From Candidatus Moraniibacteriota bacterium (GTDB taxonomy: Bacteria > Patescibacteriota > Minisyncoccia > Moranbacterales > UBA1568), in contig JAAXXG010000008.1 of the NCBI GenBank assembly GCA_013334575.1, forward strand, positions 1-46,204: a stretch of DNA of 46,204 nucleotides, read 5' to 3'. The notes under the pieces were generated by a model. It saw nothing but the letters and a program-made list of their open reading frames with translations, searched no databases and was not told the origin of the DNA. Numbering within the stretch: the stretch's first letter is position 1; every line of letters begins with the position of its first letter. Positions 11,888-46,204 of the stretch are shown piece after piece. Both the position numbers and the translations under genes were made by a program.

Positions 11888-11963
11888 TGGTGACCTCTAC
11901 GGGACTCGAACCCGTGTTCCCACCGTGAGAGGGTGGTGTCCTAGACCGCTAGACGAAGAGGCC
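11888..11963 (-). tRNA. tRNA-Glu(CTC), CCA encoded
   Basis: Cloverleaf; anticodon arm CCACC-CTCTCAC-GGTGG; GGTTCGAGTCC. Confidence 0.96.
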
Positions 11964-11986
11964 GTGTTCTCACTGTTTCATACCGG

Positions 11987-12057
11987 CAGGAGCGGAGGGA
12001 ATCGAACCCCCGACCGCGGTTTTGGAGACCGCTGTTATACCATTTAACTACGCTCCC
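11987..12057 (-). tRNA. tRNA-Trp(CCA)
   Basis: Anticodon arm GCGGT-CTCCAAA-ACCGC; GGTTCGATTCC. Confidence 0.95.
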
Positions 12058-12121
12058 GTCCCGTCATCCGGTCCGGGAGCGGTGCCAGAGAGCCCCCGCG
12101 CCCCTCCCGAGGACGGCCCGT

Positions 12122-12283
12122 CTACTTGCTCTCATTGTGCGGCGTGTGCTTGCGGCAAAACTTGCAGAACTTGCTGAGCGAAAGCTTCTCCTTCACTTTC
12201 TTCTTGTTCCGCGTCGTATAGGTCGTGATACGCCCACATTCCGAGCACTTCATCTTAGCCATGTTGTCCTTGATCTTCCCCAT
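12122..12283 (-). CDS. rpmG: 50S ribosomal protein L33
   Basis: Manual translation MGKIKDNMAKMKCSECGRITTYTTRNKKKVKEKLSLSKFCKFCRKHTPHNESK. Confidence 0.95.
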   Translation of the reverse strand: MGKIKDNMAKMKCSECGRITTYTTRNKKKVKEKLSLSKFCKFCRKHTPHNESK

Positions 12284-12309
12284 ATCGCCTCAAAAAATGT
12301 GACTGCTCC

Positions 12310-12338
12310 AGTGTACGGAAAAGACGGGATTCCGTCAA
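12310..12338 (-). promoter_or_regulatory. putative promoter for rpmG/tRNA-Trp/tRNA-Glu
   Basis: TTGACG, 17 bp, TACACT. Confidence 0.6.
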
Positions 12339-12353
12339 TCCCAGTCCCTCGTG

Positions 12354-12426
12354 AGCCGTTGACCGGGCTTGAACCGGTGACCTTCTCCTTACCATGGAGA
12401 TGCTCTACCAACTGAGCTACAACGGC
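12354..12426 (-). tRNA. tRNA-Thr(GGT)
   Basis: GCCGTTGTAGCTCAG..; anticodon arm TCTCC-ATGGTAA-GGAGA. Confidence 0.95.
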
Positions 12427-12466
12427 GATATCATCGCGATCCACGGAATCCATGCGCTATGGATAT

Positions 12467-12745
12467 CGCTGTGGGCAGGGAGGGAGAAATCCCCTCCCGG
12501 GAGATTTCTCTCCTTCGGGCCGGAGCGCTGCGCACGCTCGCGCCCTTCTCATCCCTTCACTATTTTCAATAACGACTACCACACCCGACGTATGAAACGC
12601 TGAGCACGGTTTTCGCTGTGGGCAGGGAGGGATTCGCCCATTCGGGCCGGAGCGCTGCGCACGCTCGCGCCCTTCTCATCCCTTCACTATTTTCAATAAC
12701 GACTACCACGCCCGACGTATGAAACGCTGAGCACGGTTTTCGCTG
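12467..12745 (-). repeat. two tandem tRNA-Tyr-linked repeat units (127 and 147 bp), each ending in a copy of the tRNA 3' end
   Basis: GTGGGCAGGGAGGGA at 12471, 12618 and 12745; the intervening ~105 bp are near-identical. Confidence 0.92.
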
Positions 12746-12829
12746 TGGGCAGGGAGGGATTCGAACCCCCGAAGGCACAAGGCCGGCAGATTTACAGTCT
12801 GCTCCGTTTGACCGCTCCGGCACCTACCC
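12746..12829 (-). tRNA. tRNA-Tyr(GTA), intact copy
   Basis: GGGTAGG acceptor, GCAGA-CTGTAAA-TCTGC anticodon arm, long variable arm, GGTTCGAATCC. Confidence 0.95.
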
Positions 12830-13087
12830 GTTATCAACTTCCAAACTCTCCCTCAGTCTTTTTCGAAGATCTTTCTTTCCGTCGCTTGTTTTCAGAAAAC
12901 GTTCCCGCCGTTCCGCTTCCGACTTGTAAGTATACGCTTCGTAGCACAGAAGCATGAGTGGTCGTCTCGATTTCGTCGATTCGACATTCCCGCTCCGATG
13001 CTCATCCATCCGCCTTTTCAGGTCTCCCGTCATTCCGACATAAAACTTCCCATCGTTCCCACTCCTCAAAATGTACACGTAATACAT
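12824..13087 (-). CDS. stand-alone GIY-YIG nuclease (87 aa)
   Basis: MYYVYILRS..KFYVGMTGDLKRRMDEH..STKSRRP..YEAY..EAERRERFLK; stop codon lies in nt 4-6 of tRNA-Tyr. Confidence 0.93.
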   Translation of the reverse strand: MYYVYILRSGNDGKFYVGMTGDLKRRMDEHRSGNVESTKSRRPLMLLCYEAYTYKSEAERRERFLKTSDGKKDLRKRLRESLEVDNG

Positions 13088-13097
13088 AAGAAGAACA

Positions 13098-13213
13098 AGG
13101 GATTCGCCCCGCATGCGCGGGGCGTCCGGCGCATGCCGGACGAACCCTAAATCCGAAGGCACAAGGCCGGCAGATTTACAGTCTGCTCCGTTTGACCGCT
13201 CCGGCACCTACCC
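13098..13213 (-). pseudogene. disrupted tRNA-Tyr copy (identical 5' 61 nt, T-arm with insertions, no 3' acceptor strand)
   Basis: 13153-13214 identical to 12769-12830; then a 5-nt insert, GGGTTCG, a 36-nt insert, AATCCCT. Confidence 0.9.
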
Positions 13214-13234
13214 GAATATCTTTTCAACCACCTG

Positions 13235-13307
13235 AGCCGAAGGCCGGATTCGAACCGGCGACCGACGGTTTACAAAACCGTTGCTCTACCAGCTGAGCTA
13301 CTTCGGC
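13235..13307 (-). tRNA. tRNA-Thr(TGT)
   Basis: Anticodon arm ACGGT-TTTGTAA-ACCGT; GGTTCGAATCC. Confidence 0.95.
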
Positions 13308-19353: not shown

Positions 19354-19381
19354 AAGAACCAAAAAAATCGGAGAAAGAAAA

Positions 19382-19561
19382 CTACTTCTTCTTGGCGACC
19401 TTCTTGGTGGCCTTCTTGGCGACCTTCTTGACCGCCTTCTTGGCGACCTTCTTGACCGCCTTCTTGGCGACCTTCTTGACCGCCTTCTTGGCGACCTTCT
19501 TCACCGCCTTCTTGGCGACCTTCTTGACGGACTTCTTCGCCGCCTTCTTCTTTGCTGCCAT
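19382..19561 (-). CDS. histone H1/Hc2-like lysine-rich repeat protein (59 aa)
   Basis: Repeated KKVAKKAV encoded by a 24-bp tandem repeat; strong SD AAGGAGGTGA before ATG 19561. Confidence 0.85.
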   Translation of the reverse strand: MAAKKKAAKKSVKKVAKKAVKKVAKKAVKKVAKKAVKKVAKKAVKKVAKKATKKVAKKK

Positions 19562-20084
19562 GTGGTTCACCTCCTTTCGTTTTTTCCGCGTATGCGGATG
19601 TGTTGCACGATGGAACGAATGATTCGTTGCACCGCTCCCTCCGTGCGTTGTTTATGTCGTATCGGAATTTTTTTCCGATACGTTTTCATTATAATTTTTT
19701 TTTCAAAAAAATCAAAGTGATTTTTTTTCCTGTCAAGCGTTCATGATCGGCGATAAGAACACGATTTGAAAATCAATAACGCGATGACACCAAACGAATC
19801 GATGAACGAAGGATCGGTAACGAAGATACGTATCCGATATCATGATACCGAAACAGGAACGCCGCATGAACCTTCTTCATTCTTGTCGCAATGATTCATA
19901 ACGGAAGATTCCTTCGCGCCCGCCGTTCTTCGCCGACTCCGAAACGATCAGTTACGGACCCGAGAGACCTTCGCAACGGGGTTCCGATCGAACGTTTCCC
20001 TTCCGAGGCCCTTCTGATGCGCTCTTCCGCCACCGAAATATCGAAAAATGCCCATATAACGCAAGAAACCGGTCGTTTGTAAAG

Positions 20085-34469: not shown

Positions 34470-34847
34470 ATGCAGATCAATATCACCATGCCGCATCAGC
34501 TTGAAACCACGTCCCGGGAAAAAATCGAAACACTCCTCCTTGAGCTCTCGGGCTACTCGACGGAATACGTCGAGATCGAACTTGGAGAAACCGAAAGGTC
34601 CGTTCCGATCTATCGGATTACGGTCGCAAGAGCCCTTTCCGACATGCGGCTCGTCCTCCATCCGGACGAACTCCTGATCGGACGATTCCACGATAACGGC
34701 CGGATCGACTGGTATTACCCGGAAAAGATCCGGAGCATGCGAAGATCGCTCTTCGCCGGCAGTCGCCAAGCCGACGACGGCTACGTCCGGTCGCAGATAA
34801 CCCGAGTCACTATCGCTGGGAGAAAAATGGAAAAGCCGCCCGAATAA
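34470..34847 (+). CDS. hypothetical protein
   Basis: 125-aa ORF followed by terminator at 34831-34860. Confidence 0.65.
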   Translation: MQINITMPHQLETTSREKIETLLLELSGYSTEYVEIELGETERSVPIYRITVARALSDMRLVLHPDELLIGRFHDNGRIDWYYPEKIRSMRRSLFAGSRQADDGYVRSQITRVTIAGRKMEKPPE

Positions 34848-34921
34848 GAGCGGCTTTTTTTCTTTTCATTCCCTCGTCTTCACTTTCACAGAAAAAACAA
34901 GGCTTATCCGAGCCTTAAAAA

Positions 34922-35470
34922 TCAGCCTCTTTCATGTTCGGATCCACGGACAGCATTTCGGCCCTCCTTGCCATCCCCGTGTCCCGGAATACAGATATCC
35001 CCGATGGTCTCCCTTCCGTGATTCTTCCCTTCCCATTCTTTCCGGTCTCCGTACGCGGCAAATTCGTCGTAAAAACGGTGCGGCGCGATCGGACGCCTCG
35101 TCGCCTTGATCGGACACCAGTACCGTTCGGTCCGCGCGCCGACCTCGACAAAGTACGCGAACAGCCCGTTGAGGTAGCTGCAATACCAGCAGTTGAGCCG
35201 CTGCACGGGCCCGAGATACCGCAGGTGCCGCCGCTCGAACACGACATAGTCCGAACGCCGGACGACCGGCAGCCCGTAGAGCGGGAACGCCGCGACGTTG
35301 TACAGCGTAACGAAGAGGTCCATGAGGACCGCCGGGAAGAACAGTGCGTAGATGAACGGGATCGACAGGCAGTGCCGCACGTACTGCAAGACGCTGCCGA
35401 AGGCAGCAGCACCGGACGACGCCGATGCGTCATCGGTCGCCGCGTCACCGTAAAAAGAGACATCCGCCAT
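34922..35470 (-). CDS. hypothetical membrane protein, Cys-containing
   Basis: TM segment; RRHLRYL..LNCWYCSYLNGL..RTERYWCPIK. Confidence 0.8.
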   Translation of the reverse strand: MADVSFYGDAATDDASASSGAAAFGSVLQYVRHCLSIPFIYALFFPAVLMDLFVTLYNVAAFPLYGLPVVRRSDYVVFERRHLRYLGPVQRLNCWYCSYLNGLFAYFVEVGARTERYWCPIKATRRPIAPHRFYDEFAAYGDRKEWEGKNHGRETIGDICIPGHGDGKEGRNAVRGSEHERG

Positions 35471-35654
35471 AGTCGAAAGAAAAGCCCGGTTATTCCCGTC
35501 ACCGGACCAGTATACGCGAAACGAAGACCCTTTGCCATCATCCCTCCCAACACGACTATCCGATCAAACAGAGTCGAAGATGCGAAAAGCGGGCCTACAT
35601 GGGCCCGCTTATCGTCTTCCGTCCCCCTCTCTCAACCGCAGGACCGGTAATTTC

Positions 35655-35915
35655 CTACTGTTCCCTTTCGCCGTCGGAACACTCTCCTGAAACGTCTTCG
35701 GACGTTTTTTTGCGCGTCAAAGAGGCCTCGCTGGTGTGGCCGTCGGATTCTCGACGCGCCACCGACCGCTCTATGAACTCCGTTTCGTTCGGTTCGGGCA
35801 GAGCGGAAGAATCCCCGAGCATCCCGTCTCGCTGGTCCGCGGGGTCCTTTCCGATCTGATCCCGCTCGTCCACGGAATCCGACCCGTATTCAGTTTCGGA
35901 TTCGACCCGTTTCAT
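35655..35915 (-). CDS. hypothetical acidic protein
   Basis: 86-aa low-complexity ORF. Confidence 0.4.
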   Translation of the reverse strand: MKRVESETEYGSDSVDERDQIGKDPADQRDGMLGDSSALPEPNETEFIERSVARRESDGHTSEASLTRKKTSEDVSGECSDGEREQ

Positions 35916-35950
35916 AGGTAATTACGAACGGCTTTTTCGCGAAACCCATT

Positions 35951-36526
35951 TTATTCCCGGGTATGCCCTCTGTCAAACCAGCCGTGATATTGCCTCGTTA
36001 TAGAACACTTTCCGGTCGGTTTCATCACGCCCTTGTCGCCACCCGACGCGCTTCCCGACCAGGAAGCGAGCGCCAGTATGACGACTCCCGATACGAGCAA
36101 TAGGACGGCCGTCTTGTATAGGCTTCCTTTTTTCTCCGTAAGCTGGACATTTTTCTCCATGGCAGCCTCGAGATCGCTCAGCAGCTGCGCGCCCAGCCCG
36201 GACGCATTATCGGAGACCAGATACTTCTCCCCGACCCCTTGCCTGAACGAGACGGAGGAATAATAGCTCCGGCGCGGCCAATTGATGCGGATAAGGATCG
36301 CGAGCGCGATAACGATCACGAGCAGCGCCGCCGAACTCGCAACGAACGCCACCCCCTCGAGATCTTCTCTCACAAGGAAGACATACCCAGTAAAAACGGT
36401 AATGCCGAACCCGAGCAGACTCCCGGCCTTCTGGTCCAACGCGGCATCCGCCGATACAACCGCATCGAAACGGCTTCTGGCGGCATCCAACAGCAACGAA
36501 TATCTTTCCGCATCCATCCCGTCCAT
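35951..36526 (-). CDS. 3-TM membrane protein
   Basis: LDQKA followed by 2 TM, WPR, then N..KK and a third TM. Confidence 0.75.
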   Translation of the reverse strand: MDGMDAERYSLLLDAARSRFDAVVSADAALDQKAGSLLGFGITVFTGYVFLVREDLEGVAFVASSAALLVIVIALAILIRINWPRRSYYSSVSFRQGVGEKYLVSDNASGLGAQLLSDLEAAMEKNVQLTEKKGSLYKTAVLLLVSGVVILALASWSGSASGGDKGVMKPTGKCSITRQYHGWFDRGHTRE

Positions 36527-36538
36527 ACGTGTCCCATT

Positions 36539-37024
36539 TCAGAATTTATCACCTCCGTTCATCCGCCAGACGGCGAGATTCAGGAAGGACGCGAAGGAGA
36601 CCCAGGCGATATACGGGAGCATGAGCATCCCTGCCCGCGAGTCGATCCGGAAGAAGAGCGCCGTCGTTACGACGATCGCGACGAGCAACGCGAGGATCTC
36701 GAGATACGCCAGGTCCGGCCGACGAAAACCGAAGAAGAGCACCGACCAGAACACGTTGAGCAGGAGCTGGACCGCGTACGCCGAGAGCGCGAGCGTCGCG
36801 CCCGGTATCGCTCGTTTCTCCCACACCAGTCCCGCCGCGATCCCCATGAGCGCGAAGAGTACCGTCCACACCGGACCGAAGAGCCAGCCCGGCGGCGTCC
36901 ACGACGGTTTGGAAAGCGTCGCGTACCAGCCCGACACGCTCCGCGCAGTGAAGACCGACCCAAGTATCCCAGCCCCTTCCGCGATCACGACCGAAACGAC
37001 GTATGGAACGAGATTCATAAGCAT
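36539..37024 (-). CDS. tspO: TspO/MBR tryptophan-rich sensory protein
   Basis: WYATLSKPSWTPPGWLFGPVWT, LNVFWSVLFFG, PYIAWVSFASFLN. Confidence 0.93.
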   Translation of the reverse strand: MLMNLVPYVVSVVIAEGAGILGSVFTARSVSGWYATLSKPSWTPPGWLFGPVWTVLFALMGIAAGLVWEKRAIPGATLALSAYAVQLLLNVFWSVLFFGFRRPDLAYLEILALLVAIVVTTALFFRIDSRAGMLMLPYIAWVSFASFLNLAVWRMNGGDKF

Positions 37025-37199
37025 AGTCCTTATCTTTTCAGTATACCCCGATTTCCGATTTTTCCCCCTCGCCAGCATCGCGAATCGCCGAAGATTCTCT
37101 TAAGAAGTCAAGGATCCGAGACGCTCTCTCAATAGGCCGCCGAAAGCAGGAAGTGTCGCCTTCAGTCCAACCCCTTCCACTCCCTCATCGAGCGGAATA

Positions 37200-37228
37200 T
37201 TGACTAAATAAGTTTCATATTGTATAAT
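37200..37228 (+). promoter_or_regulatory. sigma70 promoter
   Basis: TTGACT, 17 bp, TATAAT. Confidence 0.8.
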
Positions 37229-37286
37229 AGACGGTCAATGGATCTTTCAAACCACTCTTCCGACTTCAACATCAAACATACCCACC

Positions 37287-37739
37287 ATGAAAACCGACTC
37301 ATTCCCCGAATACCCCAGCCCGCTCGAGGTCAGCAACATACTCAACGGGTATCCCTATCTTCCGGAGCAGGAATCCCCGGAAGAGGTCTCTGCCATAAGA
37401 CGGCATCTGACCGTCCTTCTGACCGTCGCCTTCCTGGCAAGACTCAGGGAAAACCGATGGGACGCGTGGATTTCCGTCGGGGAACTGCGTGAGGCCTCTA
37501 TCAACCTGGCATTGATCGATCCGTGCCCGATGATCTCCGTCGTCATAAAACAGCAGCTCGAATATCACATCTTTCCCGAGCTGGAAGTCATGGCGGACGA
37601 AGGCCTCCTCCGAAAGATCGATTCGGAACATCCGGATAGGACCGTCTACGAGACAGGCGAACCGCTCGCAAGCTATTGCGAATTTATGACATCCGTCCTG
37701 CTCGTAAGCTCCGAGCAGACCGAGAAAGCCGCTTCATAA
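37287..37739 (+). CDS. hypothetical protein, paralogue A
   Basis: Own promoter and terminator; similar to 38889-39293 (NRWxAxIS, PELEVM..EG.L, YETGE). Confidence 0.8.
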   Translation: MKTDSFPEYPSPLEVSNILNGYPYLPEQESPEEVSAIRRHLTVLLTVAFLARLRENRWDAWISVGELREASINLALIDPCPMISVVIKQQLEYHIFPELEVMADEGLLRKIDSEHPDRTVYETGEPLASYCEFMTSVLLVSSEQTEKAAS

Positions 37740-37782
37740 TGGGCGGCTTTTTCCTTTTCATTTTCATTCAGACATTCCGGAA

Positions 37783-37844
37783 CCGATTTCGTCCGAAAAA
37801 TGCCCACTCGGAGAAGCCTCAAAAATAGACCGGGGCGGTTTCAT
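37783..37844 (+). repeat. module-boundary repeat, copy 1
   Basis: CCGATTTCGTCCGAAAAATGCCCACTCGGAGAAGCCTCAAAAATAGACCGG. Confidence 0.9.
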
Positions 37845-37950
37845 TTCTCACATCCGGTTTCAACCGGAATCATTTGCGGACAAAAAAAGCCGCCCCGATT
37901 CGTTTCCGGGACGACCTTGTTCGTTTGCTTGCCTCATTGCCGGTGACGAC

Positions 37951-38517
37951 TCATGAGGTCCGCTTCAGCTTCAGCGCTTCGATATAGTCGGAGTATTCAT
38001 ATGACTCGCATGTTCCGCGAAACAGCTCCTCCGCGAGAGTCGGCGACTTCCACACGCAGCGTTGCATCGATTTCAGATATGCTATCTGAACCGGGTCCGC
38101 ACATTCCGATATCTGCGCGGAAAGTATGAACCCCAGTAACTCGGTGTCGCTCGTATCGTACCCGCGCATGTCACCTTCGGCCAGAGTGACGAACGAAAGG
38201 ACGCTACAGGCGTTTTCGAACACGGTGTCAAAGGAGAGTCCGCCTGTACGCAACATCGCAAGGATCAACGAGACAATCTGCGGCACATATTCTTCTATGA
38301 CGGAGCTCAGCCCTTTACCATCGCCGAGCCTTTTCTGAACCACCGCGTCCGCCGCATCGTATTCTTCGGGCCCCAGCTGCGACAGGGCATTAAAGCACAT
38401 CCACACCTCCGGAAACACGATCTGTCCCCCGCCCACCCCTTCACAGGCAAAAGGCAACTTCCCCTCAACGAGTCGACACAACGTGTCGACCATCTCTTCA
38501 TTCACGTGTACGGTCAT
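37951..38517 (-). CDS. hypothetical protein
   Basis: SD AAGGAGG; promoter TTGACA-17-TACAAT at 38601-38573. Confidence 0.8.
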   Translation of the reverse strand: MTVHVNEEMVDTLCRLVEGKLPFACEGVGGGQIVFPEVWMCFNALSQLGPEEYDAADAVVQKRLGDGKGLSSVIEEYVPQIVSLILAMLRTGGLSFDTVFENACSVLSFVTLAEGDMRGYDTSDTELLGFILSAQISECADPVQIAYLKSMQRCVWKSPTLAEELFRGTCESYEYSDYIEALKLKRTS

Positions 38518-38642
38518 GTGAGACCTCCTTGGTCTTATGGTTATTGTTTCATTTTAAATTGCACGAAGAAATATTGTAGATCATAGTTAAATATTTGTCA
38601 ACCGTAAGAAATAACCGGGTTCGATTTTACCGAGCATACAGA

Positions 38643-38689
38643 CCCCTTCCGCGATCACGACCGAAACGACGTATGGAACGAGATTCATA
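38643..38689 (-). repeat. 47-bp exact duplicate of the tspO 5' region
   Basis: Identical to 36973-37019. Confidence 0.92.
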
Positions 38690-38888
38690 GGGTTCGAACC
38701 GTCATGAATATCCCTCGTACTCCCTCATGATACCGGAATCTCCGCGCCATTCACCTCGTTTCCACCGGGCCCTGCGCGCCGCATCAAGGTGCTGGCTTTG
38801 ACGCAAAAAGAGATTGACAATATTGGATACATGTAGTATTTTATGAGGTCGAAACAAAGCCGCTTACCAATATCAAACATACCGACTC

Positions 38889-39293
38889 ATGACACACAAA
38901 ACTTTCTCCGTGGCCGTGAATCCGTCCGGCATCTACGCTATTCTCGAGAGGTATATCCCCGCCGAAGAAGTCGAGGGCATAGACGCGTTTCTGGCGACCT
39001 TCATGCTCACAGCCTACCTGGCGGAGTTCAACGGAAACCGGTGGGAGGCACAGATCTCCACCCGAGACTTGTCCATACGCTTTACGGAAGAGTGGGTCCG
39101 AGAACCTGATCCGCCCGCCTTCGTCGCCGCGATGAGGAAATTCAATCGCGATATCCTCCCGGAACTCGAAGTCATGTCACAAGAGGGCTCACTCCTAAAG
39201 CTCGAAGAAAATCCGGATGAGAGAATCTACGAGACGGGCGAATGGTTCGCAAGATGGTGTGCCCTTCTAGCAGGCAGGCTACTGATAGACTGA
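38889..39293 (+). CDS. hypothetical protein, paralogue B
   Basis: TTGACA at 38814; terminator at 39309-39344; similar to paralogue A. Confidence 0.8.
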   Translation: MTHKTFSVAVNPSGIYAILERYIPAEEVEGIDAFLATFMLTAYLAEFNGNRWEAQISTRDLSIRFTEEWVREPDPPAFVAAMRKFNRDILPELEVMSQEGSLLKLEENPDERIYETGEWFARWCALLAGRLLID

Positions 39294-39360
39294 TCATTAT
39301 AACGATCGAAAAGCCGCTCCATGCAAATACAGGAGCGGTTTTTTATTTCGCGCTCCAACA

Positions 39361-39411
39361 TCCGATTTCGTCCGAAAAATGCCCACTCGGAGAAGCCTCA
39401 GAAATAGACCG
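39361..39411 (+). repeat. module-boundary repeat, copy 2
   Basis: TCCGATTTCGTCCGAAAAATGCCCACTCGGAGAAGCCTCAGAAATAGACCG. Confidence 0.9.
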
Positions 39412-39587
39412 CGCCAGGCTTTGATGCTCCGGGTCAGAATTCGCCCGCACCCACTCAAAAGGAACACCCTCGACTCCCCACTGATATCCGTTCCCGGTCA
39501 CATCGACCCGGCAAAAGGCAAGGCGAGCATACTAAAACGCGTGACGGCAACGAAGCACATCACGCGTTTCATTCTTTTTCCCTCGCC

Positions 39588-40154
39588 TCATACGACGATG
39601 AGGTCCGGAGAGATGACGTCATCCACGAAACCGTACAGCAAGGCTTCACACAGAGAAAGACAAGTCCCTTCGCCATCCATCAACTCCATCACGCGATCTG
39701 CCTCGAGCCTGGTTCTCGATGCGATGAGGCGCGCGCAGATGATGTCGATCTCGGACATCGTCCGAGCATAGGAGAGGCTCTCGGAGGCACTCAGAGGCTG
39801 ATTATCGTGCCTGAAGATTTCGGCGAGCATGAAAGCCTCGCGAGCGCGGACCTTCCGACCACCATGCTCGTATGAAGCCCGATGGAAGAAGAACTTCGAA
39901 TCGGGGATGGCAAGCCTTTTGCTCCCCATCAGGAAGATGTCCAGGGCGGCCGACGATACCGGACCGTCTCCTATAGTCGTAATATCTCTTCCACGGAAAA
40001 GCGGTCCCACCACGAACAAGGCCTCGGCCGTACCACCCGAAGAAGATATGACCACGTTCGACTTCCCGCCGCGGACCTCTTCGGACAGGCGGCACAATTC
40101 ATAGGCGCCGATGTTGTTCCCCACTACAAAGGCGCTGTTGTACTCCGTATACAT
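39588..40154 (-). CDS. divergent ClpP-like protease subunit
   Basis: ISSSGG, GPVSSAA (Ser), KRLAIPDSKFFFH (His), EALLYGFVDDVI; SD GGGAGG; promoter TTGACA-17-TATAAT at 40257-40229. Confidence 0.8.
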   Translation of the reverse strand: MYTEYNSAFVVGNNIGAYELCRLSEEVRGGKSNVVISSSGGTAEALFVVGPLFRGRDITTIGDGPVSSAALDIFLMGSKRLAIPDSKFFFHRASYEHGGRKVRAREAFMLAEIFRHDNQPLSASESLSYARTMSEIDIICARLIASRTRLEADRVMELMDGEGTCLSLCEALLYGFVDDVISPDLIVV

Positions 40155-40340
40155 ATTACCTCCCGGTCTATCGTTGGAATAGAATGTCGGTTCGCTCTCC
40201 CTCTCCGACACATGTAAAAGAAAGTAATATTATAATTCATTAACATTTTCTTGTCAAACGAACATACCACGATAGCGCCCACTCCAACAGGACGAAAAAA
40301 CAGACATCCGGACGCCTGTTTCCCCTTTCCGACCTCAAAA

Positions 40341-40403
40341 TCCGATTTCGCCCAAAAAATATCCCTCGGATAAGGCCTAAAAATCGGACGAATTCGATTT
40401 CAA
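40341..40403 (+). repeat. module-boundary repeat, copy 3
   Basis: TCCGATTTCGCCCAAAAAATATCCCTCGGATAAGGCCTAAAAATCGGACGAATTCGATTTCAA. Confidence 0.88.
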
Positions 40404-40516
40404 CCGCGAATATCCCATTGGCATTGATTCGATCCATTCCAGCAATTCAGAATGAAAGAGAATAGATAAAGCCTGACTGTTTGCCAGCCAGGCTTTATTG
40501 GTTCGATTGCCCTCCT

Positions 40517-42346
40517 TCAGTTCGCAGGAATGGTCTTCATAAGTCTCTCCCGTTGTTCCGGGGTAAGCCTATTGAAGCGCTGATTCACCGTTGAACTGTC
40601 CCGTAAGACCCGTTGTTCGTTGTAATTCTTCCGAATCCGCTCATTCAGCTTCCTTTCGTTCTCGGTCTGCTTAAGCTGAATCGACTGATTGTCGAACGAG
40701 ACGATCGGCAACACGCTTTCTCCCGTATCGTAGTAACCGATGGTCACCACGTCACCGGAATCCGTATTCTCGATCTTCGGAGAAACGACCCTGGTACATG
40801 TGAACAGATGAGGGATGCCGGCCTTGGGATAGATATAGAAATTACCATCTTTGGCATCCTGATGGATCCTTCCGACAATAAACTGGACCGTTTTCATGTC
40901 CGTCCCTTTTTCCAAGGCAGCGAGCGCCCTTTTTCCCATCATGCCCTGATATACCCCGAGTGCTTCCGTCAAATCGTTTCCGATTGCGACTTTCTGGATT
41001 TCCAGCACGTTCACGATCGCGACGCCCTGACGGGCATGCGAATCATTCAGGAGCGGCATCACGGATACCATGTTTCCGTACAGATTGTAAATCTGCGGAT
41101 GAACGGGATGCAACTTCTTGTAACTCACATCCTTGTTGTTCAGCACGGCATTCTCGATGGCACTGTTCGTGCTACCGCCGTTGGTCAGGTAGTAGGTCGT
41201 CTTCCCGGTCCGCGAATTCACATACACCATAGCGAACAAAGAAGTGTCTTTCTGACTTGTTGAAGTCATGCTGACGACCCAGTAGAGATCTCCGTCGGAT
41301 CCATAAACCATGATGGGATCTTCGGGCTCAAGAAGGCTCAATGTTCCCCACCAGCTGTTCCACCAGCCACCCTTCAGTTCCCCCCACCACTTCAGATTCT
41401 GCTTGACATTGTCTTTTGGCATGACGCGGTCCACCCAGCTCGGAACGCTTCCCAGCGGATACGGCTTCGCGGCACCGGTAACGGGATCGACGATCACGAC
41501 ACCGGTCACTTTCTCGCCGTCGAAAACGATAGTCGGCTGATACGTGGTGACCACCCACCATGCCTTACCGTGCTCATCAACCTCCAGGGTATAATCTTTA
41601 AGACCGACAGAAAGGTATCCGTTCTCTCTCAGGTGCCTTTCCAGATTGTGACCGAAGAATGCGCCGGGAGTGTACTTGAATCCCTCCCCATCGCCAAGCA
41701 CCACGAACTTCGGTTCGACTTCATCATCCTCGGCACTGACCATGATGTAGCCCGGCACGGCTCCAGCACTGCTCCATACGCTGTAACTGTCCCTGTAATC
41801 GAGCGGCACCACATACCAGTATTCGCCGTTCACCTTCTGCAACGTGACCGCCGACTCAAGCACTTCGAACTGGCTGCCATAGTTCCTGCCGTTCAGGGTC
41901 AGATGGTTCTTTGCCTGATAGATTGCGTTCTCCTGGCTGGACAAACGGATATGCTGCGGATTCGTCGGCTGTATGTCCTGACTCCACGTCCTGGTCTGCA
42001 TGGGACCAACGATGGCGGCATACTCGTCGGACCGCAACATCGTACTGCCGAAAAACACCATTACCAGTGCCACAATCAACAGGCCGGCTGGAAAAGCTAT
42101 AAGGACGGATAAGCCTTCATTCGACGCGAAGTCGATCCCCGCCGAAATACACCACAGGATGAGCACAAAGAATCCGCACAATCCGAAAGTTGGACCGACC
42201 GTCGACGCAGTCGTGAGCCAGAATACAAACCAGAGCAACAGCTGAGCGGGCACAAAGACCCCGGCCGCCCAAGCGAATTGCCTCTTCAGCAGAAGCGGGA
42301 TTATACCTAAGCCGGCGCAGATAAGCGCCATGAAAAAGTAAGTCAT
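40517..42346 (-). CDS. membrane protein with about 4 N-terminal TMs and a large extracytoplasmic domain
   Basis: 609 aa; SD GAAGGAG; promoter TTGACT-17-TAGAAT at 42430-42402; hairpin at 40466-40498. Confidence 0.85.
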   Translation of the reverse strand: MTYFFMALICAGLGIIPLLLKRQFAWAAGVFVPAQLLLWFVFWLTTASTVGPTFGLCGFFVLILWCISAGIDFASNEGLSVLIAFPAGLLIVALVMVFFGSTMLRSDEYAAIVGPMQTRTWSQDIQPTNPQHIRLSSQENAIYQAKNHLTLNGRNYGSQFEVLESAVTLQKVNGEYWYVVPLDYRDSYSVWSSAGAVPGYIMVSAEDDEVEPKFVVLGDGEGFKYTPGAFFGHNLERHLRENGYLSVGLKDYTLEVDEHGKAWWVVTTYQPTIVFDGEKVTGVVIVDPVTGAAKPYPLGSVPSWVDRVMPKDNVKQNLKWWGELKGGWWNSWWGTLSLLEPEDPIMVYGSDGDLYWVVSMTSTSQKDTSLFAMVYVNSRTGKTTYYLTNGGSTNSAIENAVLNNKDVSYKKLHPVHPQIYNLYGNMVSVMPLLNDSHARQGVAIVNVLEIQKVAIGNDLTEALGVYQGMMGKRALAALEKGTDMKTVQFIVGRIHQDAKDGNFYIYPKAGIPHLFTCTRVVSPKIENTDSGDVVTIGYYDTGESVLPIVSFDNQSIQLKQTENERKLNERIRKNYNEQRVLRDSSTVNQRFNRLTPEQRERLMKTIPAN

Positions 42347-42488
42347 TCAGATTCTCCTTCATTTTATTGTTATAGAGCTGCGTCCGCATTTCGGACTTTA
42401 TATTCTAACACATTAAATAAAACGAGTCAATATCCTCCGAACGTAATATCAATAAATATCAGACGAATTCCGCACTCCAGGCCCCACA

Positions 42489-42551
42489 TCCGATTTCGTC
42501 CGAAAAATATCCCCGGGATAAGCCTCGAAAATCGACCGGATTCTATTTCAA
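42489..42551 (+). repeat. module-boundary repeat, copy 4
   Basis: TCCGATTTCGTCCGAAAAATATCCCCGGGATAAGCCTCGAAAATCGACCGGATTCTATTTCAA. Confidence 0.9.
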
Positions 42552-42703
42552 TGGCTGAGACCGAATTTCAACTTTCTCCACTTCCGATATGTCCGTACGA
42601 CAAGACCCTTGGCAATAAGCACGAGAATTATGACCGCAACCAAAACTAGTAGGTACGAATCGATAAAGAACGCCTTCAAAAGTGGAAACCACTCGAGTTT
42701 CAT
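42548..42703 (-). CDS. 51-aa single-TM ORF, possibly truncated at repeat copy 4
   Basis: Manual translation MKLEWFPLLKAFFIDSYLLVLVAVIILVLIAKGLVVRTYRKWRKLKFGLSH; SD AAGGAG; TGA lies inside the repeat. Confidence 0.55.
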   Translation of the reverse strand: MKLEWFPLLKAFFIDSYLLVLVAVIILVLIAKGLVVRTYRKWRKLKFGLSH

Positions 42704-42706
42704 AGA

Positions 42707-43009
42707 TTAATTCTCCTTAAAGAAGTCCTCGTCGACCCGTTTGATATCGTAGGTCGTCTCCACCTGCACGCCGACATCGTAGCGGATCATGAGGTCGACC
42801 AGCTTCTTGCCGTCGATCAGGATGATCTTATGCGCGGCCGTCTCGGCCTTCCGTACTGCACCCGCATCAAATGACGAGGTCGTCACGAAAATACCCTTGT
42901 TCGTGTCACCGCTCATCGCGCCGATGAAATCCCTGATATGCGGCTCGTAGGCCGGCTTCTCGTGGGTCGCATGCAAAACGCCTCGGTCGATCGGAATAAC
43001 GATCCGCAC
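42707..43009 (-). pseudogene. mrr: Mrr-type restriction endonuclease, C-terminal fragment
   Basis: IRDFIGAM..KGIFVTTSSF..IILIDGKKLVDLMIRYDVGV..DEDFF; upstream catalytic D..QxK segment absent. Confidence 0.8.
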
Positions 43010-43011
43010 CG

Positions 43012-43248
43012 TTACCTACTCCCTTCCACCCTATCCCGAATCAAATCGATGTTTCTCAAGGCTTTCCCGACATCGTGCCGCTCGCTCCAAATGAAATCCC
43101 GATCGATGACGGTCATCTCATCGGACATACCCGGCAGAGTATTTTTCGCATCCGGCATCAGCACCGAGTCGACGGACCGGTCGATCAGCTTTCCGGCAAG
43201 ATACCGCGCTTGTGCCTCTATCTCCTCTTGGGAAAGCCGTTCCTGCAT
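43012..43248 (-). pseudogene. probable C-terminal gene fragment
   Basis: 78-aa ORF abutting the oppositely oriented duplicated segment. Confidence 0.4.
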
Positions 43249-43255
43249 CGGCTAC

Positions 43256-43645
43256 ATTCTCGAGAGGTATATCCCCGCCGAAGAAGTCGAGGGCATAGAC
43301 GCCTTTCTGGTGACCTTCATGCTCACAGCCTACCTGGCGGAGTTCAACGGAAACCGGTGGGAGGCACAGATCTCCACCCGAGACTTGTCCATACGCTTTA
43401 CGGAAGAGTGGGTCCGAGAACCTGATCCGCCCGCCTTCGTCGCCGCGATGAGGAAATTCAATCGCGATATCCTCCCGGAACTCGAAGTCATGTCACAAGA
43501 GGGCTCACTCCTAAAGCTCGAAGAAAATCCGGATGAGAGAATCTACGAGACGGGCGAATGGTTCGCAAGATGGTGTGCCCTTCTAGCAGGCAGGCTACTG
43601 ATAGACTGATCATTATAACGATCGAAAAGCCGCTCCATGCAAATA
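43256..43645 (+). pseudogene. 5'-truncated near-identical copy of paralogue B plus most of its terminator
   Basis: Matches 38940-39329 with two substitutions noticed; no promoter or start codon. Confidence 0.9.
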
Positions 43646-43672
43646 AGAGCGGTTTTTAATTTTCATATTTCC

Positions 43673-44653
43673 TCATTCTCCTCCCCCCGATACCGGAGAG
43701 GTCGCCGGACCGCGATCTTCAGTGTTCCCCCGACCGGAAGCGGAGTCTTCCGAGAAAAGAACGATTCCCATCTCGAGCGCCTCCAGCATAAGAGCCGACT
43801 TCTCGTCATTCAAAGCGAGGAGTCTTTCACGCGGCTTATCCCGCCTCCTCAACAACCCTATCTGTTCCGATGTCGACAGTCCGGCGCCGGAAGCCTCCTC
43901 GTACCGTTTTTCGAGGTCATCCAGTTCCAGTCGCAGCAGTCCCTCTTCTTCTTCGATTTCCATCGTCCGTTTCCTTATATCTTCCCCTCTTCGAATATCT
44001 TTTCCGATATCCGGGTTTTTCGGCCGAATGTGAAACGCGTACTTTCCTTCGAAAGCCTTCTTCATATTCTTCATGGTCGCGACTATCAGCTTTCCTGCAT
44101 TTCCGAACTTACTCAGATACAACCCTTCACCGAGATACAGGGCGAGGTGCGTGACGTTCATATGTTCGCGGTCCTTCGAGATCATGACCGAATCCCCGGG
44201 AGCCAGTGTTCCCTCGTCGAAATCCGAAACATCCCATTTCGATATGACCATGGAACCGAACTCGTGCGGGATTCCGTTCGCGAGATGAACGAACGACGAG
44301 CAGTCGAATTTCCCCTCTCTCCGATGGTCCTCACGGATAAACGCAGCGATCTTTCCGAGCATCTCCTCGGGGAGATCGATATCCCGAGTCCCGTTCCGGT
44401 CCCGCATAGATATCTCGATCCGGTCCGTATTCGAAAGGTCGGAGAGCTTATAATAGCTCGCGGATCCGTCCGGGTTGTTCCGTCCCACGCGTATCTGATG
44501 AACCTTGAACAGGCTCCCCGAATCCTGATTCTCCGCATCATGTTTCTTCCCCTTTTCGATGATGAACCTGGTCGCCGGACGATGGTTCCGCTCGGCTTCC
44601 GATTCCCGATCGGGCCGCAGTTCCGCACTCTTTGGAGGCATCTCGAGATTCAT
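43673..44653 (-). CDS. hypothetical protein, possible NlpC/P60-like Cys-His core
   Basis: FDCSSFVH..LAPGDSV..THLALYLGEG. Confidence 0.7.
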   Translation of the reverse strand: MNLEMPPKSAELRPDRESEAERNHRPATRFIIEKGKKHDAENQDSGSLFKVHQIRVGRNNPDGSASYYKLSDLSNTDRIEISMRDRNGTRDIDLPEEMLGKIAAFIREDHRREGKFDCSSFVHLANGIPHEFGSMVISKWDVSDFDEGTLAPGDSVMISKDREHMNVTHLALYLGEGLYLSKFGNAGKLIVATMKNMKKAFEGKYAFHIRPKNPDIGKDIRRGEDIRKRTMEIEEEEGLLRLELDDLEKRYEEASGAGLSTSEQIGLLRRRDKPRERLLALNDEKSALMLEALEMGIVLFSEDSASGRGNTEDRGPATSPVSGGGE

Positions 44654-44707
44654 ATGTCATTTTTACAATCGCACGACCGGAACTCATACCCCTCCTATCT
44701 TCTCAAA

Positions 44708-44770
44708 TCCGATTTCGTCTGAAAAATATCCCTTTAATAAGCCCTAAAAATCGACCGGATTCTATTTCGA
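44708..44770 (+). repeat. module-boundary repeat, copy 5
   Basis: TCCGATTTCGTCTGAAAAATATCCCTTTAATAAGCCCTAAAAATCGACCGGATTCTATTTCGA. Confidence 0.9.
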
Positions 44771-45337
44771 TATTTCTGGCCTGGTTTTGTTATTTTCTAC
44801 GGAAACCGCTCCCGTCTTTTCCCGAAGAATAGACCCTATCGCCTCGGTCTCGGCATAGAAATCGCTTCCGACCTTCACCCGATAGAACGGCAAACCGACA
44901 GACTTATAGAGTTCTACGACGAAAACATCGCGCTTCATTCGATCGGCACGCCGGTGAGACCTCCCGTCCAACTCGATGGAAAGAAGCGGCGCAGTGGTTA
45001 CGCGATCACATATCAGAAAGTCGACATGATTTGACTTGATCCGGTTCCTCAAGCCTTGTTTCCGCCCATACATTAGCCCCGCCTCCTTCACCTCCACGAA
45101 ATCCTCGACCCGAACCTTCGGGAAAACGAGATACTCTTCCCCGAGTGTCCGCCGAAGATTCACGAAAAACGCAAGCTCCGAATCATTCATGAGCCGGCTC
45201 TTCTTCTTATACAAGGAAGCATCCGATCCATCCCCGAACTTTTTCTCCAAGAAATACTTCAGCGCGAGAAATCCCATTAGAATTACAACCGCGCCAATAA
45301 AAGAAAGATAGTTCATAACTAGATATTTTTCTTTCAT
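44762..45337 (-). CDS. DUF2726 family protein
   Basis: TM; LMNDSE..VFPKVRVEDF..HVDFLICD..IELDGRSH..RD. Confidence 0.88.
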   Translation of the reverse strand: MKEKYLVMNYLSFIGAVVILMGFLALKYFLEKKFGDGSDASLYKKKSRLMNDSELAFFVNLRRTLGEEYLVFPKVRVEDFVEVKEAGLMYGRKQGLRNRIKSNHVDFLICDRVTTAPLLSIELDGRSHRRADRMKRDVFVVELYKSVGLPFYRVKVGSDFYAETEAIGSILREKTGAVSVENNKTRPEISK

Positions 45338-45930
45338 TCTTCATTTGCTTCCATTCGTTTCCGACGCTCATCAAGCGTCTCACCATCATACATCCAATAC
45401 GCTGGACCCTGAACTCCGTAACTTAGTCCAAGAATTTTTTGAGCTGCGCGAGAAAGCGTAATTATCTCTCCATTAAAATTGATCTGTCCGTTTTCCAAAA
45501 CCGTCGCTTTAATACTCTTGTCTCTCGAAAATTCCAGCTCCGCACCAACAGGAATATCAACCATCTTAAACCTAAAGTCTGGCCTCCGCGCCCGAGCTTG
45601 ATTGAGTGCTTGCTGATCCTCGATCGTTTCCACAATATCCTTTTTCGGCGTAACATTTTCAACCTCAGCCAATCGCAACGCTGCAACCGCCCGTTCCGGT
45701 GCAATCTCGAAAAACTCCCGCGATGAGCGAACCCGATGGTCCATGAACGCATCATGTAACTGCCCCTCGACAAATCCCGCGTCCTTTACCGTGCAAGCAT
45801 AGAAACACTCAAATGGAAGTGGTACACCCGTCGTATCGAGCGACCGGATCCGCTGTTCCAGGTTCGTCGTCCGGCCGATCTTCACATACCCCGGCATTGC
45901 CTCGTTGATCAGGATGTAGATGATTTCCAT
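45334..45930 (-). CDS. T5orf172-type GIY-YIG domain protein
   Basis: IYILINEAMPGYVKIGRT..TGVPLPF..E..LH..REFF. Confidence 0.88.
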   Translation of the reverse strand: MEIIYILINEAMPGYVKIGRTTNLEQRIRSLDTTGVPLPFECFYACTVKDAGFVEGQLHDAFMDHRVRSSREFFEIAPERAVAALRLAEVENVTPKKDIVETIEDQQALNQARARRPDFRFKMVDIPVGAELEFSRDKSIKATVLENGQINFNGEIITLSRAAQKILGLSYGVQGPAYWMYDGETLDERRKRMEANEE

Positions 45931-45941
45931 AGAGCTTTGCG

Positions 45942-46204
45942 CTAATCCGTCCACTCATCCGCGAGCATTTCCGCCTGTTTGAGCACATTCTCGGTCGCGA
46001 TCTTTTGCATATCCGGCGGATAACCATACTGTCGGAGTGTTCGTCGAACCAGCACTCGAAGTTTTGCCCGGACACTTTCCTTCACGGTCCAGTCGATCGT
46101 CGCATTCGTACGCACTCGCTCAACAAGCACCCGCGCCAGAGCACGCAATTGCTCATCTCCAAGAACCGCCTGCGCACTCGGATTGTCAGCCAGCGCATCA
46201 TAGA
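45942..46204 (-). CDS. hsdR: type I restriction enzyme R subunit, C-terminus (partial)
   Basis: [51 protein letters not shown] (DUF3387-like). Confidence 0.9.

Follow-up and report, generated by a model that had tools for sequence, protein, structure and literature searches.

A new extragenic repeat family marks, and probably mediates, the exchange of accessory modules in a Candidatus Moraniibacteriota genus

Bacteria of the candidate phyla radiation (CPR) have genomes of ~1 Mb with few recognised mobile elements, and the way in which they gain defence and metabolic genes is therefore poorly understood. Here we analyse a 46,204-bp stretch of DNA (the window), which is a whole contig (C14) of the Candidatus Moraniibacteriota genome G000 (1.13 Mb, 57% GC, 22 contigs, 99% complete). 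Five co-oriented copies of a ~65-bp repeat, w1 to w5, separate gene modules at its right-hand end, next to type I restriction-modification genes. The repeat belongs to a new family that marks the exchange of accessory modules and probably mediates it.

Results

Genes and repeats of the island

Judged by their sequences, the genes of the island are a mix of defence-type genes, gene fragments and uncharacterised genes. Read from the left, the island begins with a TspO/MBR gene (36539-37078, minus strand) and A1 (37287-37739, plus; 150 aa, no family), which has its own promoter at 37200 and its own terminator at 37722-37753. Copy w1 (37781-37845, plus strand as are all five) lies between A1 and a convergent 188-aa open reading frame (ORF) of no family (37951-38517, minus; promoter at 38601, terminator at 37918-37886). 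The next gene, A2 (38889-39293, plus; 134 aa), is 38% identical to A1 and gave no usable match in the ESM Atlas; w2 (39360-39425) separates it from the convergent gene of a 207-aa ClpP-like protease (39588-40211, minus), whose promoter at 40257 agrees with the consensus at 12/12 positions. This promoter lies downstream of w3 (40339-40404), and upstream of w3 is the terminator of the gene for a 609-aa membrane protein (40517-42346, minus), a member of a widespread uncharacterised family that the ESM Atlas places in unnamed clusters.

To the right of w4 (42488-42553) come a 51-aa transmembrane (TM) ORF (42548-42703, minus), a C-terminal Mrr/type IV restriction enzyme fragment (42707-43009, minus) and a 78-aa ORF (43012-43248, minus), which corresponds to the C-terminal end of a 433-aa ORF found intact in another genome of the genus (G020:C80). 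Two gene fragments, a type IV (Mrr) C-terminal part and the 78-aa piece, thus lie side by side at 42707-43248. They are followed by A3 (43256-43662, plus), a 5'-truncated copy of A2 that is 98.5% identical to it, and by a 326-aa ORF with a weak NlpC/P60 match (43673-44653, minus). Beyond w5 (44706-44772), which is the ortholog of a copy (b) in genome G015, the contig ends with a DUF2726 protein (44762-45337, minus), a T5orf172/MUG113 plus RAMA protein that matches the PADLOC candidate defence family PDC-S57 (45334-45954, minus), and the C-terminal end of the type I hsdR gene (45942-46204, minus), cut by the contig edge.

A first-pass annotation of this DNA had proposed that most modules carry their own transcription signals, and this holds: promoters near the consensus, matching it at 10-12 of 12 positions, were found for five modules, and clear terminators for three. 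Some modules comprise 2-5 ORFs, in both orientations. The A1 and A2 units are each bounded by the same two elements, on one side a TspO fragment (47 nt of the 5' part of the gene, 36973-37019, duplicated at 38643-38689 with 100% identity) and on the other w1 or w2, which are 98% identical over their common 50 nt. From the sequence, this pattern looks like allele stacking through recombination at short conserved flanks.

Anatomy of the five copies

The same annotation had called the repeats co-oriented, and all five are indeed on the plus strand. A 19-nt left-arm pattern matches five times in the window, where 0.02 matches are expected by chance, and five or more were reached in 0/100 shuffles. 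The nhmmer E-values of the copies range from 1e-17 to 1e-19, and any two copies agree at 42-56 of 67 positions over ~66 nt. The stop codons of two ORFs had been placed inside copies, and they are there: that of the 51-aa TM ORF (42548-42550) in w4 and that of the DUF2726 ORF (44762-44764) in w5. Within the first 37 kb, said to lack a full copy, only a weak, partial, terminator-like match was seen (581-616, E 0.09).

An alignment of 12 copies, which we also used to build a sequence-only covariance model (R1), gives a consensus made of a conserved left arm of 19-23 nt (ATCCGATTTCGTCnGAAAAAT), a variable centre, often palindromic around TATA, whose last letters are AAGCC, and a right arm rich in A in which GATTTC occurs again. 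Copies w3 and w4 are imperfect palindromes, as had been noted, with a TATCC-n3-GGATA centre and modest hairpins; w1, w2 and w5 fold no better than shuffled sequence. RNAalifold predicted 0 pairs in the 12 aligned copies, and with no base pair common to them their shared denominator is the sequence and not the fold. The best-conserved parts of the element are the arms, which lie outside the hairpin, and not the stem.

None of the five copies, nor the 10 nt on either side of any, contains an RYYYAAC or GTTRRRY box of the attC type, in agreement with the earlier reading. No copy was flagged by a scan for sigma-70 promoters, and inspection of the two strands by eye turned up poor hexamers only. 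Scanning the whole window at the Rfam gathering thresholds returned the 16S ribosomal RNA and five tRNAs only, and no RNA family at the repeats.

A family dispersed within one genus

The first-pass annotation had suggested scanning the genome and its relatives with a profile of the repeat. This revealed ~14 copies at six loci in G000, that is, five loci besides that of the window. On contig C17 copies lie at 113330, 114088 and 117554, plus two weaker copies at 89466 and 86590; on C22 at 18623, 75409 and 76133; and on C16 at 15956. Among the 107 genomes of the family that were searched with R1, comprising the genus and 11 other genera, the model found 2-9 copies in each of the 8/8 other species of the genus. 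Only weak, partial matches (best 20.9 bits) turned up in 26/98 genomes of the other genera, most of them covering just the A-tract and hairpin.

Wider searches gave little beyond the genus. On viral contigs the 19-nt pattern occurs in 18, but all 17 R1 matches span the pattern alone and none is a true copy. At least 119 metagenome loci match a loosely gapped pattern; R1 was run on all 119 of those listed, and one (L118) contains a full-length copy. A pattern scan of species genomes matched seven records, two of them titled Candidatus Moranbacteria or Moraniibacteriota; on the five others R1 gave no match in one and partial matches in four. A metagenome-assembled genome (MAG) titled Pseudomonadota carries two ~80-nt repeats on two contigs (L198 7570-7730 and L201 540-700), both with a 23-nt left arm identical to that of the family, followed by an A-tract and hairpin; this likeness could be due to convergence, shared ancestry or a binning error. 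We found no description of the element in the literature on CPR bacteria with integrons or attC sites, or on Patescibacteria with palindromic intergenic repeats, supplements being outside the scope of that search.

Copies resemble one another more within locus groups, meaning within arrays and across species, than between them (64% versus 53%; the difference was reached in 0/2000 permutations). The mean GC content of the six loci is 0.546 versus 0.575 genome-wide, and was as low in 684/20000 resamples, a test biased by the AT-richness of spacers. On whether the repeat is scattered regardless of variable regions, the result is mixed: the copies are scattered, but mostly within low-GC, variable DNA.

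Two observations concern the C16 locus. A Cas12a-like gene of 1285 aa, with RuvC_1, REC1 and Cpf1 REC2 domains (G000:C16:12041-15898; locus L219), has the C16 copy 58 nt upstream of it. The related metagenome contig L118 has a copy and neighbouring genes and no match to the Cas12a-like gene.

Polarity and terminator shape

All copies in G000 (14/14) lie on the C-rich strand of their own contig, as read from GC skew, and none (0/14) lies in a spacer between divergent genes only, so that every copy faces at least one gene 3' end. By our reading of the table, 12/14 are downstream of a gene reading into the reverse complement of the repeat. At 16 further loci, 15 of them from other genus members and one on the metagenome contig L118, 21/24 copies follow the local skew; in the exceptions, in G021 and G022, the copy seems to have been inverted jointly with a small inserted gene beside it. 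Skew switches at about C2:100 kb (terminus) and about C6:60 kb (origin), and is uniform along the repeat-bearing contigs; the arrays are thus at neither place.

The C17 copies are near-perfect palindromes of 56-60 bp (fold z -4.0 to -5.5). Read on the majority gene strand, the C17 and C22 copies and those related to them present an A-tract followed by a GC stem-loop and about seven consecutive T, which fits the form of an intrinsic terminator, and they lie downstream of genes. A terminator scan flags none of the five window copies. Outside the window the copies are strong palindromes shaped like intrinsic terminators; those of the window have degenerated hairpins but conserved arms, termination being left to separate terminators, so that the arms are the part retained.

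Genome differences at and near the copies

The prediction that gene content switches exactly at the repeats between strains was confirmed in part: several breakpoints between species and strains fall inside or at copies, and others fall off them. The counterpart of the window in G015 has a homologue of a 182-aa ORF, copy a, a homologue of the TM ORF, a Panacea/helix-turn-helix antitoxin-like pair, a small Cys-rich ORF, copy b, DUF2726 and hsdR, so that two copies enclose one different module. A 20-kb contig of strain X2 is ~97.7% identical to the window over 34500-38595, then has window 38596-42466 (3.9 kb) replaced by 2659 letters of other sequence, and rejoins the window at w4, 21 nt before the copy. 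Its left breakpoint is ~48 nt from the duplicated 47-nt TspO fragment. Another contig, of 1446x coverage, joins 35375 to 44708, which looks like the G015-type arrangement. Some of the joints at 85% likeness in the contigs of these sequencing runs stem from other Moranbacteria that the samples contain. The hsdR end (45839-46204) is covered in runs X1 and X2 by contigs at 100-1400x with many differences, which indicates that far more abundant relatives have a very similar hsdR C-terminus (that of G015 is 93% identical).

On C22, the slot between the copies at 75.4 and 76.1 kb is occupied by ORF167 in G000, ORF199 in G017 and ORF381 in G020. Direct comparison showed no similarity between ORF167 and ORF199, 4Fe-4S Pfam domains were found in ORF381 alone, and nucleotide homology at the slot is limited to the flank and the copies. 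The copies that follow the small conserved ORF at C22 75.2 kb are at orthologous positions in three species.

At C17 112-120 kb, an operon of fused aconitase-like and isocitrate/isopropylmalate-dehydrogenase (IDH)-like genes (G000:C17:114241-117395; locus L008 10242-13396) lies between copies b and c, which are alike in centre and right arm and different in the left arm. The aconitase-like protein was found in 0/8 other genus genomes; this absence suggests, by sequence comparison, that the operon was recently acquired by a CPR genome. In G015 the anchor genes of this locus recur, together with three copies, but the modules and their order are different.

The genomes G015 and G020 are 94-97% identical. 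Compared with contig C80, the homology of G015 extends just through the left arm of copy a and then ends, so that the copy is a hybrid; compared with contig C71, it ends at the left end of copy a, beside the end of an rve-type insertion sequence (IS); and on a third contig, synteny changes across a copy. Core regions of G022 and G021 are otherwise colinear with G000, and the lineage-specific insert in each is the copy-bearing spacer.

Search for recombination machinery

The absence of a recombinase from the window, previously stated, extends to all arrays examined, none of which adjoins such a gene. Elsewhere in the genome the recombinases that had been suggested were found in part, namely one typical Xer-like tyrosine recombinase of 351 aa (contig C4), the only tyrosine recombinase in G000, and a RAYT-like HUH gene, but no serine recombinase. 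The other genus genomes have one tyrosine recombinase each, except one genome with two and one with none, and an ortholog of the Xer-like gene is present in 7/8 of them (8/9 counting G000). An IntI-type recombinase with an attI site was not found beside the array, the window ending inside hsdR. G000 also has two rve transposases.

The RAYT-like gene (RAYT, transposase associated with repetitive extragenic palindromic (REP) sequences; G000:C17:106469-107008, locus L059 1447-1986) matches NF047646 with 63 bits, below the cut-off of 80. It is flanked by GTAGAGACG...CGTCTCTAC palindromes of the GTAG type, with one more inside the gene. The genome has about eight GTAGAGACG-type palindromes, a pair of which adjoins the repeat copy at C22:18623, and the copy nearest to the RAYT-like gene is ~6.3 kb away. 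Because the palindromes flanking the gene differ from our repeat, we rejected a link between the two.

For a dif site, we combined a palindrome search near the terminus, a listing of spacers and generic dif-like regular expressions, which yielded one candidate (C2:137407). This was dropped because it is absent from 8/8 other genus genomes, and no dif site was thus identified. An 8-6-8 central palindrome is present in the C17 and C22 copies only. The end of the rve IS in G015 and G020 does not resemble the ends of the repeat.

Other features of the window

The contig starts within the 5' end of a 16S ribosomal RNA gene (1-368, minus). Five clustered tRNA genes (11891-13307, minus) hold a tandem 127-bp duplication (12506-12759) and an identical pair of 62-nt sequences (12769-12830 and 13153-13214). 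A 12-nt periodic repeat of at least 13 units (19364-19579) lies within a minus-strand ORF; its product, read by eye, would have a basic tail rich in Lys, Ala and Val.

Discussion

Proposed portable homology at module borders

Our favoured reading, which we give a probability of just under one half, is that the repeats form a genus-specific family of ~65-bp extragenic palindromes, REP-like or similar to miniature inverted-repeat transposable elements (MITEs), that derives from bidirectional intrinsic terminators and offers portable homology for crossovers by which modules are exchanged. What favours such a role is the position of the copies at borders together with the hybrid copies and the homology breaks at copies; because one short sequence is repeated at module borders, it would serve as portable homology and hence as a crossover point. 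Copy-bearing DNA would be gained, lost or swapped at these points, probably through RecA-type or homology-facilitated illegitimate recombination following DNA uptake. Each single crossover with copy-bearing DNA would leave a duplicate copy in the same orientation, and repeated crossovers could build an array such as the one beside the type I restriction-modification genes. As a single crossover would duplicate the copy in direct orientation, both the co-oriented arrays and the locus-specific subfamilies would be explained. What the data show are the distribution, polarity and anatomy of the copies, their travel with lineage-specific DNA and their coincidence with genome differences; the mechanism of recombination and its direction are what we infer from these patterns.

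Several observations weigh against this reading. The X2 replacement has its left breakpoint (38595) away from any copy, the equivalent of the C22 slot in G015 is variable with no copy detected there, and an insertion of 2.6 kb in G020, placed 50 nt left of copy a, has no copy at its borders. In G022 the copy is 210 nt within the insert and not at its edge, and one copy of the family sits between the core genes topA and relA/spoT. The compared regions are mosaic in general, so that copies could be passengers of hypervariable DNA. Every compared locus was selected for holding a copy, and a genome-wide baseline of breakpoint density is therefore absent; the AT-richness of spacers biases the GC comparison. 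The comparison genomes are fragmented MAGs, and the three runs (X1, X2 etc.) were compared as assembled contigs. No enzyme or intermediate behind the exchange was seen, and 65 bp of shared sequence is short for efficient RecA recombination.

It is unlikely, in our judgement, that recombination at the repeat is truly site-specific, as at attC or dif, with circular modules of one copy each being integrated and excised through a fixed crossover at the end of the left arm by the single host Xer-like recombinase or an unrecognised enzyme. A site of this kind would agree with the direct orientation of all copies in an array, with an imperfect palindrome of ~60 bp that has conserved ends, a variable centre and a replication-polar position at gene 3' ends, with the 8-6-8 palindrome centres on C17 and C22, and with an Xer-like gene in 8/9 genus genomes. 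It would also suit the genome-specific operon flanked by two copies that differ in the left arm; indeed, the differences between C17 copies b and c are confined to that arm, and the hybrid copies switch at one place, after the A-tract of the left arm (copy a of G015 versus copy x of G020, w1 and w2 versus w4, and C17 b versus c). Homologous exchange, however, likewise predicts that copies switch at the boundary of the longest common block, and the switch after the left arm, fitting both equally, does not decide between them. Further against such a site, no array examined has a recombinase beside it, in a genome with a single Xer-like tyrosine recombinase and no serine recombinase; the arrays lie away from the replication terminus; there is no conserved hairpin and no attC box; many boundaries are off-site; and the searches near the terminus and in spacers gave no dif site for comparison. 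We regard as quite unlikely the claim that the repeat is the site of a cassette-exchange system that CPR bacteria operate with no dedicated integrase, circular one-copy modules being inserted and excised at a fixed point after the left arm by the single host Xer-like recombinase or an unrecognised enzyme; if true, it would provide these minimal genomes, for their defence and metabolic genes, with a system that works like integrons or dif modules.

That the copies are terminators or insulators only, spread by local duplication and vertical descent near accessory genes that need insulation, with no part in recombination, is a reading we also doubt. The terminator shape of the copies elsewhere, the gene 3' end that every copy faces and the orthologous copies that follow the small ORF at C22 75.2 kb in three species all speak for it, and because several breakpoints lie away from copies and the loci were chosen for their copies, this passive reading retains some probability. 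Yet 0/5 window copies were recognised by the terminator scan, the folds of three are no better than those of shuffled sequence, neighbouring genes have good terminators of their own, the arms and not the stem are best conserved, and genomes that are 94-97% identical differ by a hybrid copy and by breaks at or within copies. Still less probable, to the point of being improbable, is a non-autonomous MITE or REP doublet forming a hairpin (REPIN) that the RAYT-like HUH or an rve-family transposase moves into spacers independently of their neighbours. A mobile element of this kind would account for the differences in presence between species at core spacers (topA/relA and the inserts of G022 and G021), for the inverted-repeat-like ends with GATTTC at both, and for the strict replication polarity, which is known for HUH single-strand transposition, and the genome does contain a RAYT-like gene and two rve genes. 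The RAYT-like gene is nevertheless flanked by a different palindrome family, the IS end in G015 and G020 is unlike the repeat ends, copy number is low with subfamilies that are locus-specific and not genome-wide, and no clean pair of empty and filled sites with a target duplication was found.

The modules bordered by the repeats include neighbours of a restriction system, a toxin-antitoxin-like pair, a cas12a-like gene and the aconitase/IDH operon. Should the portable-homology reading be right, the repeats would provide a simple and testable route of gene flux, as well as a practical marker of variable regions and assembly breaks in such MAGs.

Comparison with known systems

An integron has an IntI-type tyrosine recombinase with an attI site, and attC sites with an RYYYAAC inverse core and a GTTRRRY core. 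The single-strand hairpin of attC is conserved despite its variable sequence, and cassettes mostly consist of a single promoterless ORF, each with its own site. The first-pass annotation had proposed an integron-like array; its observation that the repeats separate independently transcribed modules stands, and the island is variable between species and strains, but no integron machinery or attC features were found, and the repeat is dispersed. The arrays do resemble an integron or a cluster of attC sites lacking an integrase, in that co-oriented, imperfect palindromes of ~60 bp with conserved ends and a variable centre lie between variable genes. Unlike in an integron, there is no IntI, there are no R'' and R' boxes and no conserved fold; the modules, often with several genes, occur in both orientations and carry promoters and terminators of their own; and the sites are alike within one array instead of being cassette-specific. 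On every defining feature examined, the integron reading fails.

In the C17 and C22 copies the family resembles a bidirectional Rho-independent terminator, with an A-tract, a GC stem-loop and a T-tract downstream of genes. It departs from plain terminators in the arms beyond the hairpin, which are conserved in ~30 copies from nine species, and in the window copies, which have no credible hairpin and lie beside separate terminators.

A Xer/dif site has two recombinase arms and a centre of 6-8 bp, ~28-31 bp in all, is related to the dif site of the host, and is found at the terminus or on plasmids. As in the Xer-dependent dif modules of Acinetobacter plasmids and the integrative mobile elements exploiting Xer (IMEX), accessory modules here are bounded by short repeated sites and probably shuffled with no dedicated integrase, the host Xer being present (PMC6449649, PMC13141974, PMC12907356). 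The sites of our family differ from these in being 65 bp long, all direct, chromosomal and off the terminus, and in having no recognisable Xer half-sites.

The likeness to REP sequences, to their arrangement in bacterial interspersed mosaic elements (BIMEs) and to REPINs with RAYT lies in short, extragenic imperfect palindromes, some of them long hairpins with two inverted halves, that are found at gene 3' ends, are lineage-specific and persist vertically (PMC3116915, PMC3337134, PMC3733652). A MITE has terminal inverted repeats, a target-site duplication and a matching autonomous element; here the ends are inverted-repeat-like, with GATTTC at both, no clean pair of filled and empty sites was found among the compared genomes, and the end of the rve IS is unlike the repeat ends. 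Whereas REP sequences and REPINs are dispersed in tens to hundreds of copies, G000 has ~14 clustered copies at six loci in 1.13 Mb, with locus-specific subfamilies, and, unlike in a REPIN-RAYT system, its single RAYT-like gene is flanked by GTAG-type palindromes and not by this repeat. A further difference from standard REP sequences is the link of the repeat to module borders, and it is this recurrent position at the borders of lineage-specific modules, seen at three or more loci, that distinguishes the family.

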